Virus genome (UHGV): UHGV-0149439
Source: a virus
Length of the DNA stretch: 29,037 bases
Reading direction: 5' to 3' (one strand)
The notes under the pieces are model-generated. The model saw only the letters and a list, made by a program, of their open reading frames with translations. It ran no database searches and was not told where the DNA came from. This document shows, in pieces, positions 50 through 14,674 of this stretch. The translations under genes and the position numbers were made by a program. Every line of letters begins with the position of its first letter. Position 1 is the stretch's first letter.

Positions 50-289
50 TTAATGCCACGTCTTTTTGCTCAGGCTTGTTATAGCTGAAATCGCATGTGC
101 TGAATCATCAAAAAGCCGGGTCAGTACAGGAACCCACTGCCTGTTTTTGTACTCAAGCACCTGATGTCCAGGCAGGTCTTTGCTGATGATGGCAAATGTC
201 CTGAGTTCAGGCGTTGGAACAGGGAGTTCGGTGCCAGGCGGGAAATATATTCTTACCCTGGCAATAATCATGTTGTCCATGCTCATCAT
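50..289 (-). CDS. Hypothetical small protein (79 aa from MMSMDNMIIARV...), translationally coupled to the dinI-like gene
   Basis: Its ATG at 289-287 overlaps the TGA of the upstream dinI-like gene (ATGA). The listed ORF 50..304 merely extends 5 codons further. No recognisable motif. Confidence 0.45.
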   Translation of the reverse strand: MMSMDNMIIARVRIYFPPGTELPVPTPELRTFAIISKDLPGHQVLEYKNRQWVPVLTRLFDDSAHAISAITSLSKKTWH

Positions 290-525
290 TCGTTCACCAG
301 CCACATATCGGCTTCTTCAAACATCTCTTCCAGCATACGGTTAAGTCGTTCTTTTTCGGTCTTTGTGCTGTCGCTGTTTAATGCGTTAGCCTGCATTGGC
401 TTAACTCTCACGTCGGCGTCGGGGAAGATCCGGTGTACGCGCTTTGTCAGCTCGTTAAGAATGATGTTTCTTGCGCCCGGTAGCCCCTCGACATTACGCT
501 TGTCATAAACCAGTTCAACGAACAT
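286..525 (-). CDS. dinI: DinI-family DNA-damage-inducible protein (MsgA-like), 79 aa
   Basis: MFVELVYDKRNVEGLPGARNIILNELTKRVHRIFPDADVRVKPMQANALN...EEMFEEADMWLVNE has DinI length, the acidic C-terminal helix and the WxV(S/N)E end. The real start is the internal ATG at 525, not the ORF-track start at 732. A LexA box lies 19 nt upstream. Confidence 0.85.
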   Translation of the reverse strand: MFVELVYDKRNVEGLPGARNIILNELTKRVHRIFPDADVRVKPMQANALNSDSTKTEKERLNRMLEEMFEEADMWLVNE

Positions 526-543
526 AAAAGCACCCCGGAAAAT

Positions 544-680: not shown

Positions 681-835
681 AAGTGCACGTGCACTTCACG
701 TGTATATTTTTGTCTTTTCTCGGTCTGCGCACTGTCTGGTCAGTGTCCTTAAGTGGCTGTTTTTATTGCCGCTGTCCGGTTGCAGTCCTATCAAAAGTGC
801 TGGCGGGAGTTGAACCAGCGTCCGTAATCATTTAA

Positions 836-1615
836 CTATCTGTTTTTGTTGAAATCATGTTCATCTATAAAATCCGCGTAGCTTTTGCGTATCCTTTGCT
901 GTATCTGCGCAGTCTTACTATTTTTTGATACTTGGAACATTAAAGCGCCGCGATAAGTATTTTCGTAGGGTTGCTTTCCGTACTCGCGTAGATGATATTG
1001 GCTTGAGTAACTTATAGAAAATTTCTTTCCCTTTGCATCTGAGAAAGTGATTTTTAATGACGGGCCATCAACAATTGTGGGTATTTCACCATTCATAATA
1101 CGTAATGAATTTAATTCGTTTAGCAATATAATTAGAAAAACTGGAGGAAGGATAGTTCTGATTGGTTTTTTTTCTATATTTATGGGTAGCAGATAATTAT
1201 GGGAGTAATAATTTTCTAAGCTATATGGAATGGTTATTCCACCCCCGGATATTTTTATTGATTTATTGTTTGAGTTTTTTCGAGTTTCATACTTTAAATC
1301 AAAAATCTTTGAAATGGAATTTAATTTTTCTTCGGCTGGATATTCCCAAAATAGCTTTACATTTATGGCAGTGCCTAACCCTGAGTTAACTAACTCAGGT
1401 TTGATATCATCTATGGGTATTCTAGCTAGTGGCATGGCTGAATAATGATGCTCATTCATTGAAACTGTGAGCAAATCCAAATCATTAATTAATAATTGTG
1501 GTCTAATTGATTCCTTTCTTTGAACTACTGTTTGCCTAATTGCAAGGTATGCCGCAATTGCTGATAATGTACTAGCAATCAATCCACCGTATGTAACAAA
1601 ACTAGTGTCTGCCAT
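836..1615 (-). CDS. Hypothetical membrane-anchored protein, AT-rich cargo between int and the prophage edge
   Basis: 259-aa ORF with an N-terminal TM helix (FVTYGGLIASTLSAIAAYLAI), then an N/S/I/K-rich domain with no motif I can place. Markedly lower GC than the neighbours. Confidence 0.7.
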   Translation of the reverse strand: MADTSFVTYGGLIASTLSAIAAYLAIRQTVVQRKESIRPQLLINDLDLLTVSMNEHHYSAMPLARIPIDDIKPELVNSGLGTAINVKLFWEYPAEEKLNSISKIFDLKYETRKNSNNKSIKISGGGITIPYSLENYYSHNYLLPINIEKKPIRTILPPVFLIILLNELNSLRIMNGEIPTIVDGPSLKITFSDAKGKKFSISYSSQYHLREYGKQPYENTYRGALMFQVSKNSKTAQIQQRIRKSYADFIDEHDFNKNR

Positions 1616-1623
1616 GTTGTAGT

Positions 1624-1650
1624 ATTCCTGCCTAAAAATCAGGCAGGAAT
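1624..1650. promoter_or_regulatory. Perfect 10-bp hairpin in the 41-nt int-cargo gap
   Basis: ATTCCTGCCT-AAAAATC-AGGCAGGAAT. On the minus strand the 3' arm holds the only AGGA-type SD-like element before the ATG at 1615. Confidence 0.4.
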
Positions 1651-1656
1651 TATTTG

Positions 1657-2832
1657 TCAGTTAGTTTTTTTATTCAAGTGGGTAACAGATGTATTGTTAT
1701 CGTATGCTTTAAGATACCTACCGTAATGTCGAAAAAGCATCTCTGGCCCCTTATGCCCCATTTGCCCCGCCAGCCAGAAAAGGTTAACTCCTCGACTGAT
1801 TAGGCGTGTGGCATATGTGTGACGGGTCTGATAGGGATTGCGGTACCTGATACCGGCTTTCCGTAGCGTTGGCACCCACGCTTTTTTCCTTATTGCATCC
1901 GCGCTGGCCCATGGCTTGTATGTCTTTGGATCCTCAAAGACACAGCCATCTTTCATGAAAGTAAAGGGCTTTTGATCGTTAAGTGCGATTATCGCTTCCT
2001 CAGTTAATTCAACTTTGCGAGTTCCCGCCTTAGTTTTCGTACCTTTTGTCACGCCTGAAACACTGGCGCTCTGTACATGCGCCGTCTTCTCAATGAAATC
2101 AATATCCCTCCAGCGGAGTGCGCATAGTTCCGAGCTGCGAAGTCCTGTCTGGATCGCAAATCTGAATAAGTTCTTCCACTGCTTATTGCCTGTTGATGTT
2201 AACAGCGCGTTCACCTCAGCTGGTGACAGCGGATCAACCACATAACTACTTTCTGCCTCTGATTTATCACTTTGGTACCGTGAAGCTGTCACCAGTGATA
2301 CAGGGTTAATCTGAAGCACACCATCCGTCACCGCCTCATCCAAAGCTGAACGCAGGAATGACAGTTGGTTTCGGATAGTCTTTAATGTTGTTTTCTGGTT
2401 CTGGATCCATGTCTTCAGCGCGGCCGGCGTCAACTCACTTGCAGGAAAAATATGAAGTGATGACAGCGCGCTTCGGCATTTCTTATATCCACCAATTGTT
2501 GAAGGGGATAGTTTTCTCGTTTCACAGATAACCAGATACTCGTCCAGGTACATCTTCACCGTTTTGCCTGCGGCAGCGTTGCCGAAAATTTTTAACCGGG
2601 TAGAACGGGGAAAGTATTCTGCATAAACAAATGTCCCCCTCTCGATCTTGTTATGGATTTCGCCGAGTGTGCGCTCGGCGTATTTGATGTTTTTAGGAGT
2701 TACGTCCAGATTAGAAAGGGGCTCACGGCATTTAACCCCTTTATAAGTGAAAGTAATATTGATGGTTTCGCCGTTGCGGTGTTTCCTGATGGTTACGCCG
2801 CGCGGGAGCTTAGGCGATTCTGTCGTGCCCAT
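1657..2832 (-). CDS. int: Tyrosine recombinase / phage integrase
   Basis: N-terminal arm-type domain (GVTIRKHRNGETINITFTYKGVKCRE). C-terminal catalytic signature with LRSSELCALRW (Arg), HxxR in TRHTYATR, and HKGPEMLFRHYGRY (His, Tyr). Confidence 0.95.
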   Translation of the reverse strand: MGTTESPKLPRGVTIRKHRNGETINITFTYKGVKCREPLSNLDVTPKNIKYAERTLGEIHNKIERGTFVYAEYFPRSTRLKIFGNAAAGKTVKMYLDEYLVICETRKLSPSTIGGYKKCRSALSSLHIFPASELTPAALKTWIQNQKTTLKTIRNQLSFLRSALDEAVTDGVLQINPVSLVTASRYQSDKSEAESSYVVDPLSPAEVNALLTSTGNKQWKNLFRFAIQTGLRSSELCALRWRDIDFIEKTAHVQSASVSGVTKGTKTKAGTRKVELTEEAIIALNDQKPFTFMKDGCVFEDPKTYKPWASADAIRKKAWVPTLRKAGIRYRNPYQTRHTYATRLISRGVNLFWLAGQMGHKGPEMLFRHYGRYLKAYDNNTSVTHLNKKTN

Positions 2833-3011
2833 TTTGCAACCTCATTAAGATCAATCCATCTTTCCTTAACGCCGTCGACCTTTAGCACCTGAACCCCTTC
2901 ACGCCATACTCCACGTTGCACACGTTTGTTGATGGCATCCGGGGTTTCGCCAGTCTCTTTGCAATAAGTTGAGATGGGAACACAATCGAGGCTCAGCATA
3001 TATTTCTCCAT
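2793..3011 (-). CDS. xis: Excisionase (Xis-type small DNA-binding protein)
   Basis: Small basic protein directly upstream of int and overlapping it: ...ISTYCKETGETPDAINKRVQRGVWREGVQVLKVDG...WIDLNEVAKWAR. The likely true start is ATG 2999 (GGAG 8 nt upstream), giving 68 aa. Confidence 0.75.
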   Translation of the reverse strand: MEKYMLSLDCVPISTYCKETGETPDAINKRVQRGVWREGVQVLKVDGVKERWIDLNEVAKWARQNRLSSRAA

Positions 3012-3062: not shown

Positions 3063-3614
3063 TTAGTTGGTTTTCTTTAGTCCAAAGTAAAGTCCTGCGG
3101 CTATGCTTATTATGCCTGCAGCTAGAACACCAATAATCCAATAAAATAATGTTATAAATCGTTCTAACTGTTTGTCTGAGTAATCACTCATAACTTTTAA
3201 TGATGTGCTCAATGACTCCATATCTTTCTTCATGAGAGGTAAAGCCATTGCTTTTTCAGGACTATTTCCAAGTATATTATTAAGCGTGGATATCTTTTTC
3301 TGTATGTCATCAACTTTTACTTCCAACGCTTCTATTCGTATATTATCTGGGGTAAGGGTTGAAGTATTTTTTAAGGCACTTAACGTGTTTCTTACCTGAA
3401 ATATCTCATCCCTATAGGTGCTTATTTCGTTCATGAGATGATCTGTATCTATTTTTTTATCATAAGATGTAGGTAATGAAACATTTACTATTGAAGTGGC
3501 TTTATCTTTTATTTCTAAGGTCAAAGGAATGAGTATCGATCCCAAAGCGACCAGCATAAGAATAGGGGATAGTATTGCTATACTCTTTGCTAATGCGTTA
3601 CTTGTAAATGACAT
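3063..3614 (-). CDS. Hypothetical two-TM coiled-coil membrane protein, AT-rich cargo
   Basis: 183 aa with an N-terminal TM (IAILSPILMLVALGSILIPL), a central heptad-like region and a C-terminal TM (FYWIIGVLAAGIISIAAGLYFG). GAGGGA SD sits 4-5 nt before the ATG. Confidence 0.7.
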   Translation of the reverse strand: MSFTSNALAKSIAILSPILMLVALGSILIPLTLEIKDKATSIVNVSLPTSYDKKIDTDHLMNEISTYRDEIFQVRNTLSALKNTSTLTPDNIRIEALEVKVDDIQKKISTLNNILGNSPEKAMALPLMKKDMESLSTSLKVMSDYSDKQLERFITLFYWIIGVLAAGIISIAAGLYFGLKKTN

Positions 3615-13384: not shown

Positions 13385-13424
13385 TATAATTCACCTATTT
13401 AAATCAATTGTTTTAAATAGGTGA
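13385..13424. promoter_or_regulatory. Consensus TATAAT plus a 34-bp near-perfect palindrome covering the RBS of the 283-aa gene
   Basis: TATAAT at 13385-13390. Palindrome TCACCTATTTAAAtCAATTGtTTTAAATAGGTGA at 13391-13424 has one central mismatch pair, and its right arm contains the SD AGGTGA for ATG 13428. Confidence 0.5.
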
Positions 13425-13427
13425 AGT

Positions 13428-14279
13428 ATGAAAATAGATAATCCCGAAAATCCACTTGAACGAAACGATTTTACGATGGATGACTTCCATCACTACTTAA
13501 GGGAGTTTGATAAAGCTGTATGTGAAGCGAATGCTGTAAGTCAGGGGGTTGGTGTGCGAATGGCTGAGGCTTTTAAAGGGTGGTCTACATACATTTTTTC
13601 ACGAATCTGCATTCATGCTTCAATAATGATTTCCAACGTACCAAGATCAAGATGGGCTAAGCGGGATTATGACTTTTGGGATTTTTCGGCGATTGCACCT
13701 CATGTAAGAGCGATTCTGGAAGCTGAGTTATTGTTTATGTATTTATCTGAGAATCCAGATTCAACTGAGGAGTGGTCAGCAAAGTTGAATGTCATGCACA
13801 TGAATGATTGTGTAAAGAGAATTGAGTTATTTACATCTAGTGATAATACGAAAGCATTGGATTTTTATCATGAACAAAAAGATATAATAACTGAGAGACT
13901 TAATAACAACCCTGTTTTTTTATCCCTTGAACAAGGAACCAGAAAACGTTGCTTGACTGGAAAAGCGCTTATGATTCCAAATCGAGATGAGTTATTGGTT
14001 AAACTGGGAAAAGATCCAAAGTCATTTAAAATAATGTTCGATTTTTTATCTCATTATACGCATATACTACCTATGTCATATTATAAAATGGAGCCAAACG
14101 GAAGGGGAACTGGTTGTTTTAACAACTATGACTTTGGCTATATGATTATGGGGATGATTATTTGTACTGAATCCTTGACTAAGTGTACAGATAGATTAGT
14201 AGAACTTTTTCCTGATGTTAGACGGTTGCGAAAAGGAACTAAATCAAAATTCACGTTAGGGCCTAAACCAACAAAATAA
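13428..14279 (+). CDS. Hypothetical 283-aa protein: AT-rich moron between Q and the holins
   Basis: Long clean ORF with an SD, probably all-helical, no TM segment and no catalytic motif I can assign. It has its own TATAAT/palindrome and terminator. Confidence 0.8.
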   Translation: MKIDNPENPLERNDFTMDDFHHYLREFDKAVCEANAVSQGVGVRMAEAFKGWSTYIFSRICIHASIMISNVPRSRWAKRDYDFWDFSAIAPHVRAILEAELLFMYLSENPDSTEEWSAKLNVMHMNDCVKRIELFTSSDNTKALDFYHEQKDIITERLNNNPVFLSLEQGTRKRCLTGKALMIPNRDELLVKLGKDPKSFKIMFDFLSHYTHILPMSYYKMEPNGRGTGCFNNYDFGYMIMGMIICTESLTKCTDRLVELFPDVRRLRKGTKSKFTLGPKPTK

Positions 14280-14468: not shown

Positions 14469-14585
14469 ATGAAAGAAGGGGATTACTGGATTCAGCATGT
14501 GTGTGTTGTACAGGTGGCGTTTTACACCGATGACACTGTAGATGACCTGAAATGGGGAAAACAATCAAAGGAGTCTGGCACCTAA
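14469..14585 (+). CDS. Possible 38-aa small ORF
   Basis: AAGGA 9 nt upstream. Product MKEGDYWIQHVCVVQVAFYTDDTVDDLKWGKQSKESGT. No other support. Confidence 0.25.
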   Translation: MKEGDYWIQHVCVVQVAFYTDDTVDDLKWGKQSKESGT

Positions 14586-14674
14586 CCAGAGTCGATGATA
14601 TTTGCCATAACAGAGAGGCCGAAGTGCTTGAAGGTCCTCTCGCTCCATTAATGTAAGTAACCGTTCATACTTCG

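Follow-up and report, generated by a model that had tools for sequence, protein, structure and literature searches.

A membrane-anchored cargo gene in the variable integrase–ssrA slot of a Citrobacter koseri prophage: a candidate single-protein phage-defence moron

What is the function of the AT-rich open reading frame (ORF) that occupies the space between the integrase gene (int) and the attachment site (att) of the virus genome UHGV-0149439? The question arises in a stretch of 29,037 nucleotides, the window of this analysis, in which the ORF lies at 836–1615 on the minus strand, begins with ATG and encodes 259 amino acids (aa); it is referred to here as the cargo gene. The initial annotation regarded it as a single-gene candidate for superinfection exclusion or abortive infection, with translation gated by a hairpin in front of it. 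In the present analysis, the cargo gene is tentatively read as a phage-defence moron that is expressed from the prophage and whose single protein product would work from the cytoplasmic side of the membrane in an abortive-infection-like manner, a reading to which we give a probability of roughly 0.45. The assignment to defence is made through guilt by association, that is, we infer it from the position of the slot and from what the same hotspot contains elsewhere.

The encoded protein is identical to WP_200029612.1 of Citrobacter koseri. The GC content of the ORF is 0.29–0.37 (about 0.32), compared with about 0.47 in the adjacent int, which agrees with the AT-richness first reported. The int gene (1657–2832, minus strand) encodes a tyrosine integrase of 391 aa with the Pfam domains Arm-DNA-bind_2 and Phage_integrase. 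A gap of 41 nt (1616–1656) separates its stop codon from the cargo ORF, and the stop codon of the latter is 6 nt away from the att core at 799–829 (minus strand), a fragment of the 3' end of ssrA, the gene of transfer-messenger RNA (tmRNA). The core was identified because in phage LLS, whose integrase is related (about 78% nucleotide identity), the corresponding position is annotated with attP and a tmRNA pseudogene, because the ssrA fragment is found downstream of the integrase in 48 of 68 related loci, and because the matches to 799–829 in Escherichia coli genomes carry ssrA annotation. The integration of LLS into the 3' end of ssrA was deduced by its authors (PMC12315714), and the integrase of the window has the same target, as judged from the ssrA fragments that adjoin its 68 homologous loci. 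The prophage carrying the cargo gene is lambdoid, with an ssrA-targeting attP, and resides in Citrobacter koseri.

The slot was surveyed in these 68 loci, which represent one genome per species and integrase homologues at 57–92% identity, with the slot size measured from the int stop codon to the ssrA core. The slot was empty (53–134 nt) in 39 loci and filled with a low-GC insert of 1.5–2.9 kb in nine; in 20, the ssrA core was absent within 6 kb of int. None of the 68 surveyed integrase loci carries a homologue of the cargo protein. The contents found in the slot elsewhere are AbiLi and AbiLii (L015; PADLOC, 1.6e-103 and 4e-29), a fused PARIS AriAB (L028; 1e-63), DarT with the DarT1-associated NADAR antitoxin (L058, L059 and E. 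coli EC43; Pfam, 1.4e-18 and 8.7e-91), a STAND NTPase with TPR of 819 aa (L031), an OLD/Gabija-like AAA_15/AAA_21 ATPase of 595 aa (phage phiNP), a DUF4760 membrane protein (L036), and a pair of membrane proteins of 82 and 272 aa that belong to no family (L018, L037 and L061). This pair is conserved in three species (7406–8491 in L018, 2561–3631 in L037 and 7443–8513 in L061); it consists of a protein of 82–91 aa and a multi-spanning protein of 268–272 aa, and gave no Pfam or PADLOC match.

It is because AbiL, AriAB, DarT-NADAR, the STAND NTPase and the OLD-like ATPase occupy the same slot elsewhere that the cargo gene is read as a defence gene. The survey therefore verifies, for this integrase family, the defence-cargo slot between att and int that had been supposed by comparison with other elements, and it indicates that the cargo gene is not core; core status in related phages had been named at the outset as a ground for rejecting the proposal. 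The same flanks enclose diverse and mostly defence-related cargo, and the gene is present or absent among related phages and deviates in base composition, as morons do. The cargo gene is an accessory, moron-type cassette in a variable int–att slot. In all filled loci, the homology of the integrase ends at residues 378–388 of 391, and the insertion point of the cargo is therefore placed within the last ~10 codons of int. Cargo hotspots adjacent to integrases are known from e14, where lit lies between icd/att and intE, and from P2 and P4. The slot of the window resembles them in being a short, AT-rich variable segment between att and int with mostly defence contents, but it has another integrase family and another att site (the 3' end of ssrA), and the protein encoded in it has no relationship to Lit, Old, Tin, PARIS and similar proteins.

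The cargo protein has one N-terminal hydrophobic helix at residues about 6–26 (21 aa), encoded at 1538–1600 on the minus strand and located from invariant alignment columns and from the lysine and arginine residues (K/R) at its flanks, so that the transmembrane (TM) helix proposed earlier was retained. The helix has a conserved small-residue face (S15/S18/A19/A21/A22), which suggests helix–helix packing rather than a passive anchor, and is followed by conserved R27, Q28, Q32 and R33. The N-terminal tail is acidic and short (mean 7 aa) in all 112 aligned members, and K/R residues are more numerous after the helix than before it (3.7 vs. 0.27 residues) in every one of them. According to the positive-inside rule, this bias indicates an N-out/C-in orientation in 112 of 112 members, which answers the topology check that had been called for, and the domain of ~230 aa is therefore predicted to be cytoplasmic. 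The possibility that the helix is a Sec signal peptide was ruled out by the acidic n-region, the 21-aa hydrophobic stretch and the basic residues after the helix.

The AlphaFold2 model computed from the 112-sequence alignment reached a predicted local distance difference test score (pLDDT) of 94.3 and a predicted template modelling score (pTM) of 0.83. Its elements are a helix at residues 4–36, a beta-sandwich into which two helices are inserted, and a helix near the C-terminus at 234–252, and the cytoplasmic part is predicted to be an immunoglobulin (Ig)-like beta-sandwich. A structure search in BFVD gave two unnamed viral proteins only, and a PDB sequence-profile search with the cargo family gave no match. 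The remote-homology and structure check proposed earlier thus yielded a confident fold, but no match that names a function in Pfam, PADLOC, the PDB profile search or BFVD.

The predicted cytoplasmic domain speaks for a mechanism at the cytoplasmic face and against a blocker of injection that faces outward; the functional domain that Sie2009/Ltp-type proteins hold outside the cytoplasmic membrane is not placed there by the predicted topology. The superinfection-exclusion (Sie) proteins HK97 gp15 and P22 SieA are moron-encoded inner-membrane proteins that the prophage expresses and that block genome entry. The cargo gene is like them in being a prophage moron for a membrane protein, but no homology to them was found and its bulk domain is predicted to be cytoplasmic. 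Superinfection exclusion proper, in which genome entry is blocked at the inner membrane and the cell survives, is considered unlikely. A membrane-anchored protein with predicted prophage expression, encoded beside int in a hotspot, would suit such a role, in which the high conservation of the TM helix could come from its binding to a host membrane protein that is itself conserved, and the variable domain could track phage ejection proteins. However, the predicted N-out/C-in orientation leaves only about 5 periplasmic residues, so that the block would have to act from the cytoplasmic side, for example with the protein bound to a phage protein after its ejection, or to an entry factor of the inner membrane at its cytoplasmic face, and no similarity to known Sie proteins was found in the library searches. 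As far as the modelled topology can tell, an abortive-infection-like mode is more likely than outward-facing exclusion.

Two known abortive-infection systems are relevant to the abortive-infection-like mode. In PdpSau, which is encoded by Staphylococcus aureus prophages, abortive infection goes along with depolarisation of the membrane (PMC10127798). Like PdpSau, the cargo gene is a single prophage accessory gene for a protein of about 260–280 aa with an N-terminal TM helix and a C-terminal domain, here predicted to be cytoplasmic, and PdpSau is functionally the closest analogue of the mechanism proposed here. Lactococcal AbiP has an essential N-terminal TM anchor and a phage structural protein as its trigger, binds nucleic acids, and is plasmid- or chromosome-borne in Firmicutes (PMC13064643). 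The cargo gene shares with AbiP and AbiC the single-gene design, anchoring by an N-terminal TM helix and, outside the membrane, a domain of unknown fold class; unlike AbiP, the cargo protein and its 112 relatives have no Pfam or PADLOC Abi match, and it gives no hint of nucleic-acid binding. The arrangement common to AbiP, AbiC and PdpSau, a single N-terminal TM helix with a cytoplasmic domain, is thus present in the cargo protein by prediction, and no homology to PdpSau or AbiP was seen in the tests applied.

The part of the protein beyond the TM helix had been described as having no recognisable motif. This part of the description did not hold, as a full-length hidden Markov model match to PHROG 7259, a family of unknown function, was found (E value 1.6e-48, residues 4–259 on positions 6–277 of 277); gp31 of LLS also matches this family at full length (4.9e-43). 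A word-indexed search found 11 relatives from Enterobacter, Yokenella, Citrobacter and Salmonella, and a second one with the 112-sequence profile found two further proteins (P0120 and P0160). The exhaustive profile search gave 686 representatives, defined as clusters at 50% identity, at E values up to 1e-3, and 159 at E values up to 1e-10; nearly all are 230–285 aa long with full-length matches. This wider family is largely chromosomal or metagenomic, and its named members, from Enterobacter, Klebsiella aerogenes, Cedecea, Serratia and Vibrio, are all annotated as hypothetical proteins. By tblastn, the cargo protein matched phage LLS alone among 50,697 phage records and nothing on plasmids, and in 5,426 complete E. 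coli genomes nothing corresponded to the DNA of LLS gp31, the ssrA part alone being matched. A degenerate DNA pattern for NIGLGAAK gave 20 matches in IMG/VR, none of which encodes a family member, and these matches were rejected as chance.

The residues conserved throughout the family are Q32, R33, P39, N77-x-G79-x-G81-x-A83, W90, P144, P157 and D193, a set that, as far as the alignment can tell, does not look catalytic. Among the distant alleles, the identity is 62–70% over residues 1–40 and 64–85% over residues 233–259 (with LLS as an exception at 32%), and it falls to 19–38% over residues 41–232. This combination of a conserved N-terminus and a variable middle suggests a sensor/effector-like pattern. 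The ratio of nonsynonymous to synonymous substitution rates (dN/dS) is 0.12–0.50 for the cargo gene compared with 0.04–0.08 for int; when both genes are taken from the same pairs of genomes, the dN of the cargo gene is about tenfold that of int. Judged from these comparisons, the cargo gene is under purifying selection, yet it evolves much faster than int or is swapped as a cassette between conserved flanks. In an Enterobacter roggenkampii remnant (L082, 1–1561), int is deleted and the cargo ORF is intact; this remnant also retains dinI, a terminal stretch of ~50 nt of int, and the promoter-like element and hairpin described below, and its cargo allele has a dN/dS of 0.50 relative to that of the window. 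The breadth of the family, the high pLDDT, the dN/dS values and the intact gene in the int-less remnant indicate that the cargo gene encodes a real, selected protein.

The 41-nt gap in front of the cargo gene holds the hairpin noted earlier, at 1624–1650 on the minus strand, with a stem of 10–12 bp. Its arms ATTCCTGCCT (1624–1633) and AGGCAGGAAT (1641–1650) are 100% complementary around a 7-nt loop, and it is the sole perfect stem of at least 10 bp with a real loop in the window. The folding energy of the coding-strand RNA is about −18 to −20 kcal/mol (z = −4.2), and none of 200 shuffled sequences was as stable. The Shine–Dalgarno (SD)-like AGGA that had been placed within the hairpin lies in its 3' arm (1626–1629, minus strand), 10 nt before the ATG. 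In an alignment of the int–cargo spacers of 16 loci, 92.3% of the cells are paired and double changes occur in 5 of 12 pairs (25 cells); the covariation score is 0.429, compared with 0.176 in shuffles (0/500) and at most 0.148 in slid registers. Compensatory arms such as TCCCTACTTC/GAAGTAGGGA are found in Salmonella and Citrobacter alleles, and an SD-like purine stretch is present in the 3' arm of every hairpin in the alignment.

Single changes in the hairpin produce U·G on the sense strand, where they would produce C·A on the opposite strand, and this confinement of the wobbles indicates that the hairpin acts as sense RNA. For the same reason, a DNA operator was ruled out. An intrinsic int terminator was ruled out by the lack of a U-tract after the hairpin on the sense strand, and a lambda sib-like element by the fact that the hairpin stays linked to int whether the prophage is integrated or excised.

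A promoter-like element straddles the int stop codon at 1649–1677 on the minus strand. It scored 9/12 in the consensus scan and consists of a −35 TTGAAT (1677–1672), a 17-nt spacer and a −10 AATAAT (1654–1649). TTGAAN, a variable spacer of exactly 17 nt and AATAAT are kept in 16 of 16 loci, and we infer a function as a sigma-70-type promoter from this conservation. The −35 lies within the cassette-specific tail of int, and the last T of the −10 is the first base of the 5' arm of the hairpin. A transcript from this element would therefore start inside the 5' arm and lack the full hairpin; indeed, RNA folded from position 1642 is no more structured than shuffles (z 0.12), and int read-through RNA keeps a 12-bp stem. 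It is thus likelier that the hairpin silences int read-through than that it silences the gene's own mRNA. This modifies the hairpin-gated translation of the initial annotation, which remains in the form of a conserved RNA that buries the SD; probably, the hairpin blocks cargo translation on int read-through transcripts only. It may additionally protect the 3' end of int.

Several results weigh against the defence reading. The cargo protein had no match in Pfam, NCBIfam or PADLOC-DB v2.0.0, including its Abi, PD-, HEC- and PDC- models, and the 112 aligned relatives gave no consistent Pfam family and one marginal PADLOC match only (E 0.009). Gene-wide positive selection was tested and not found (dN/dS <1), and diversifying selection was not demonstrated. 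In the single window, the promoter score is at chance (8 sites found vs. 8.7 expected), and the support for the promoter is therefore comparative. The close homologues (27–98% identity), which come from Salmonella, Citrobacter, Enterobacter and Yokenella genomes, phage LLS and six IMG/VR contigs, all lie 41–44 nt past the same integrase type and 8–25 nt before the ssrA core, which could mean an integration-linked role. Finally, one distant member of the family was found in an ordinary chromosomal context among housekeeping genes.

The neighbourhoods of the distant members bear on whether the gene belongs to defence at all. From this branch, 60 metagenome loci were retrieved, and 91 neighbouring ORFs from 26 of them were scanned; the commonest Pfam family among these ORFs was AAA_13 (4 ORFs). 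A PDC-S06/AAA_13 (PrrC-like) ATPase lies on the same strand 137 nt downstream of the family member in one locus (L127, 210–3216), and a PDC-S06/AAA_13 ATPase lies about 740 nt upstream in divergent orientation in another (L147, 2832–6684), which makes a two-gene association with an ATPase possible in part of the family. Further PADLOC matches beside distant members are an MkoC-like protein (L131), a type II restriction–modification system and IetA. In this small sample, which lacks a formal background, these neighbours suggest that distant members reside in defence neighbourhoods.

An accessory or lysogenic-conversion gene outside defence, for example one concerned with the envelope or with stress, or a selfish or neutral passenger in a permissive site, is also regarded as improbable. 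It would agree with the missing match to any known family, with the distant member between housekeeping genes, with the mostly ordinary genes around the distant members, and with the fact that hotspots carry non-defence morons too. On the other hand, all identifiable cargo in the slot consists of defence or toxin systems, the gene is under purifying selection and retained in the int-less remnant, and defence-type neighbours recur in the distant branch. A phage-cycle role tied to the integrase, in which the protein would be a membrane modulator of integration, excision or lysis timing and the hairpin a stabiliser or processing site of the 3' end of int mRNA, is very improbable: the constant 41–44 nt distance of the close homologues from one integrase type, the overlap of the 3' end of the cargo ORF with the presumed P' arm and the hairpin directly after the int stop codon would fit it, but of the 68 related integrases, 39 function beside an empty slot and others beside unrelated cargo, members of the family are also found where there is no integrase, and the gene is intact where int is deleted.

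The favoured explanation, a defence moron that acts at the cytoplasmic face, can be put as a sequence of steps. The cassette would have been inserted between int codon ~381 and the P' arm of the ssrA-targeting attP. Its own sigma-70-type promoter would give a transcript that starts in the 5' arm of the hairpin and leaves the SD free, so that synthesis of the protein in the lysogen would be constitutive; on int read-through RNA, the full hairpin of 10–12 bp would bury the SD, and cargo translation would be uncoupled from int expression. The product would cross the inner membrane once, with 5 aa of its N-tail in the periplasm, a small-residue TM helix and a basic juxtamembrane QR motif. The variable Ig-like sandwich may sense a phage component, and the conserved TM and juxtamembrane part may be the effector, which would oligomerise and perturb the membrane. 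A more far-reaching version is unlikely: in it, the cargo protein would be the prophage-borne representative of a large family (at least 686 clusters at 50% identity) of single-protein immune sensors that combine a hypervariable Ig-like sensor with a Kir-like oligomeric TM pore collapsing the membrane potential, and in prophages the gene would be silenced by the hairpin on int read-through and expressed from its own promoter in the lysogen. The likeness to inward-rectifier K+ channels (KirBac3.1 and others) is a structural resemblance only, and the two TM helices, pore loop, selectivity filter and significant structural match that characterise the Kir superfamily were not found.

The boundary of the element was examined on the att side of the cargo gene. 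The ssrA fragment of the window is without the terminal TCCACC (797–800), whereas the locus of another C. koseri genome that has the same prophage (L099, 4800–4860) is intact there, ending in ...CAGCTCCACCA. Small deletions of the CCA end also occur in the non-functional ssrA copies of the relatives L010, L036, L082 and L085, and the lost bases fit decay of a duplicated ssrA fragment. In C. koseri contigs, the order is int, the cargo gene, the ssrA fragment and a ~1-kb remnant with dinI, after which the host's DUF1440 and methionine-salvage genes begin. What fills the first ~800 bases of the window is therefore the decayed end of a neighbouring prophage outside the element, and the possibility that the window is a free phage genome was ruled out because C. 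koseri chromosomes have this junction too, with host genes lying 1 kb past it. The remnant contains a DinI-family gene (286–528, minus strand; Pfam 2.5e-23), which is preceded by a LexA-box-like palindrome TACTGTGATTGTATACAGTA at 544–563 and by a promoter-like TTGACA-17-AAAAAT at 591–563. The ~1-kb segment beyond att is a remnant of another ssrA-integrating prophage; its sequence is found at the right end of phages PhiR12 and phiES15 and at an internal position in phage LMessi. The bidirectional terminator first placed at 645–680 is real and spans 643–680 as a terminator-like hairpin that looks bidirectional (both strands), but it lies beyond att, in the remnant of the other prophage. As a predicted terminator, it would bound the read-out of the cargo gene in the window genome; in integrated relatives, the terminator downstream of the cargo is that of the host ssrA.

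Within the last 27 codons of the cargo ORF, two tandem decamers, AAGGATACGC and AAAGCTACGC, occur at 876–896 (minus strand) as the sole two exact copies in the window. Relatives with an empty slot have comparable tandem repeats at an equal distance from the core, and the 3' end of the cargo ORF is better conserved at the DNA level than its middle. The decamers are candidate arm-type (P') sites of the integrase inside the 3' end of the ORF.

Further features were observed around int and elsewhere. An excisionase-like ORF of 72 aa (2793–3011, minus strand) was identified from the ORF list and synteny and overlaps the start of int; its syntenic counterpart is annotated as an excisionase in phages LLS and phiNP, and a Pfam search with it gave no match. 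Directly upstream of this xis lies a second AT-rich ORF (3063–3614, minus strand, 183 aa, GC about 0.34), whose product is hydrophobic at both termini with a coiled coil between them and gave only weak PbeC/LmuB coiled-coil matches (E about 1e-3 to 1e-4). At this position the relatives differ, with a DnaQ-like exonuclease in LLS, an Rv2179c-like exonuclease, or unknown ORFs of 144–320 aa, and it looks like a second variable slot flanking int–xis. The longest inverted repeat of the window, ATAATTCACCTATTTAAATCAA / TTGTTTTAAATAGGTGAAGTAT at 13386–13429 (22 nt, spacer 0, 91% complementarity), directly precedes an ORF starting at 13428. A full-length Rfam match to isrI, an Hfq-binding small RNA of Salmonella prophages, was found at 14564–14660 on the plus strand (47.5 bits against a gathering score of 45). 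Past the prophage ssrA fragment, islands with P4-type integrases were found in some relatives (L096/L097, 3163–6935; L076/L078/L079, 6050–10801; L081, 5029–8786), carrying SIR2_2 together with HerA/DUF87, Mrr_cat or a very large AAA protein. These islands indicate that ssrA in those genera is a tandem array of defence-carrying elements.

Integrase-adjacent defence cargo is already well known, whereas the protein family and the promoter-in-hairpin wiring are undescribed in the libraries and literature searched. If the cargo gene is a defence gene, it would provide a function for a widespread family without Pfam or PADLOC models and would represent a minimal, one-protein, membrane-tethered sensor/effector. 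The int–ssrA slot is a compact hotspot with conserved flanks that can be mined for unknown cargo, such as the pair of 82- and 272-aa proteins and the DUF4760 protein, and since it is empty in most species, such mining is feasible in a systematic manner. The promoter-inside-hairpin arrangement would offer an example of how a moron may be insulated from the transcription of a neighbouring integrase gene.

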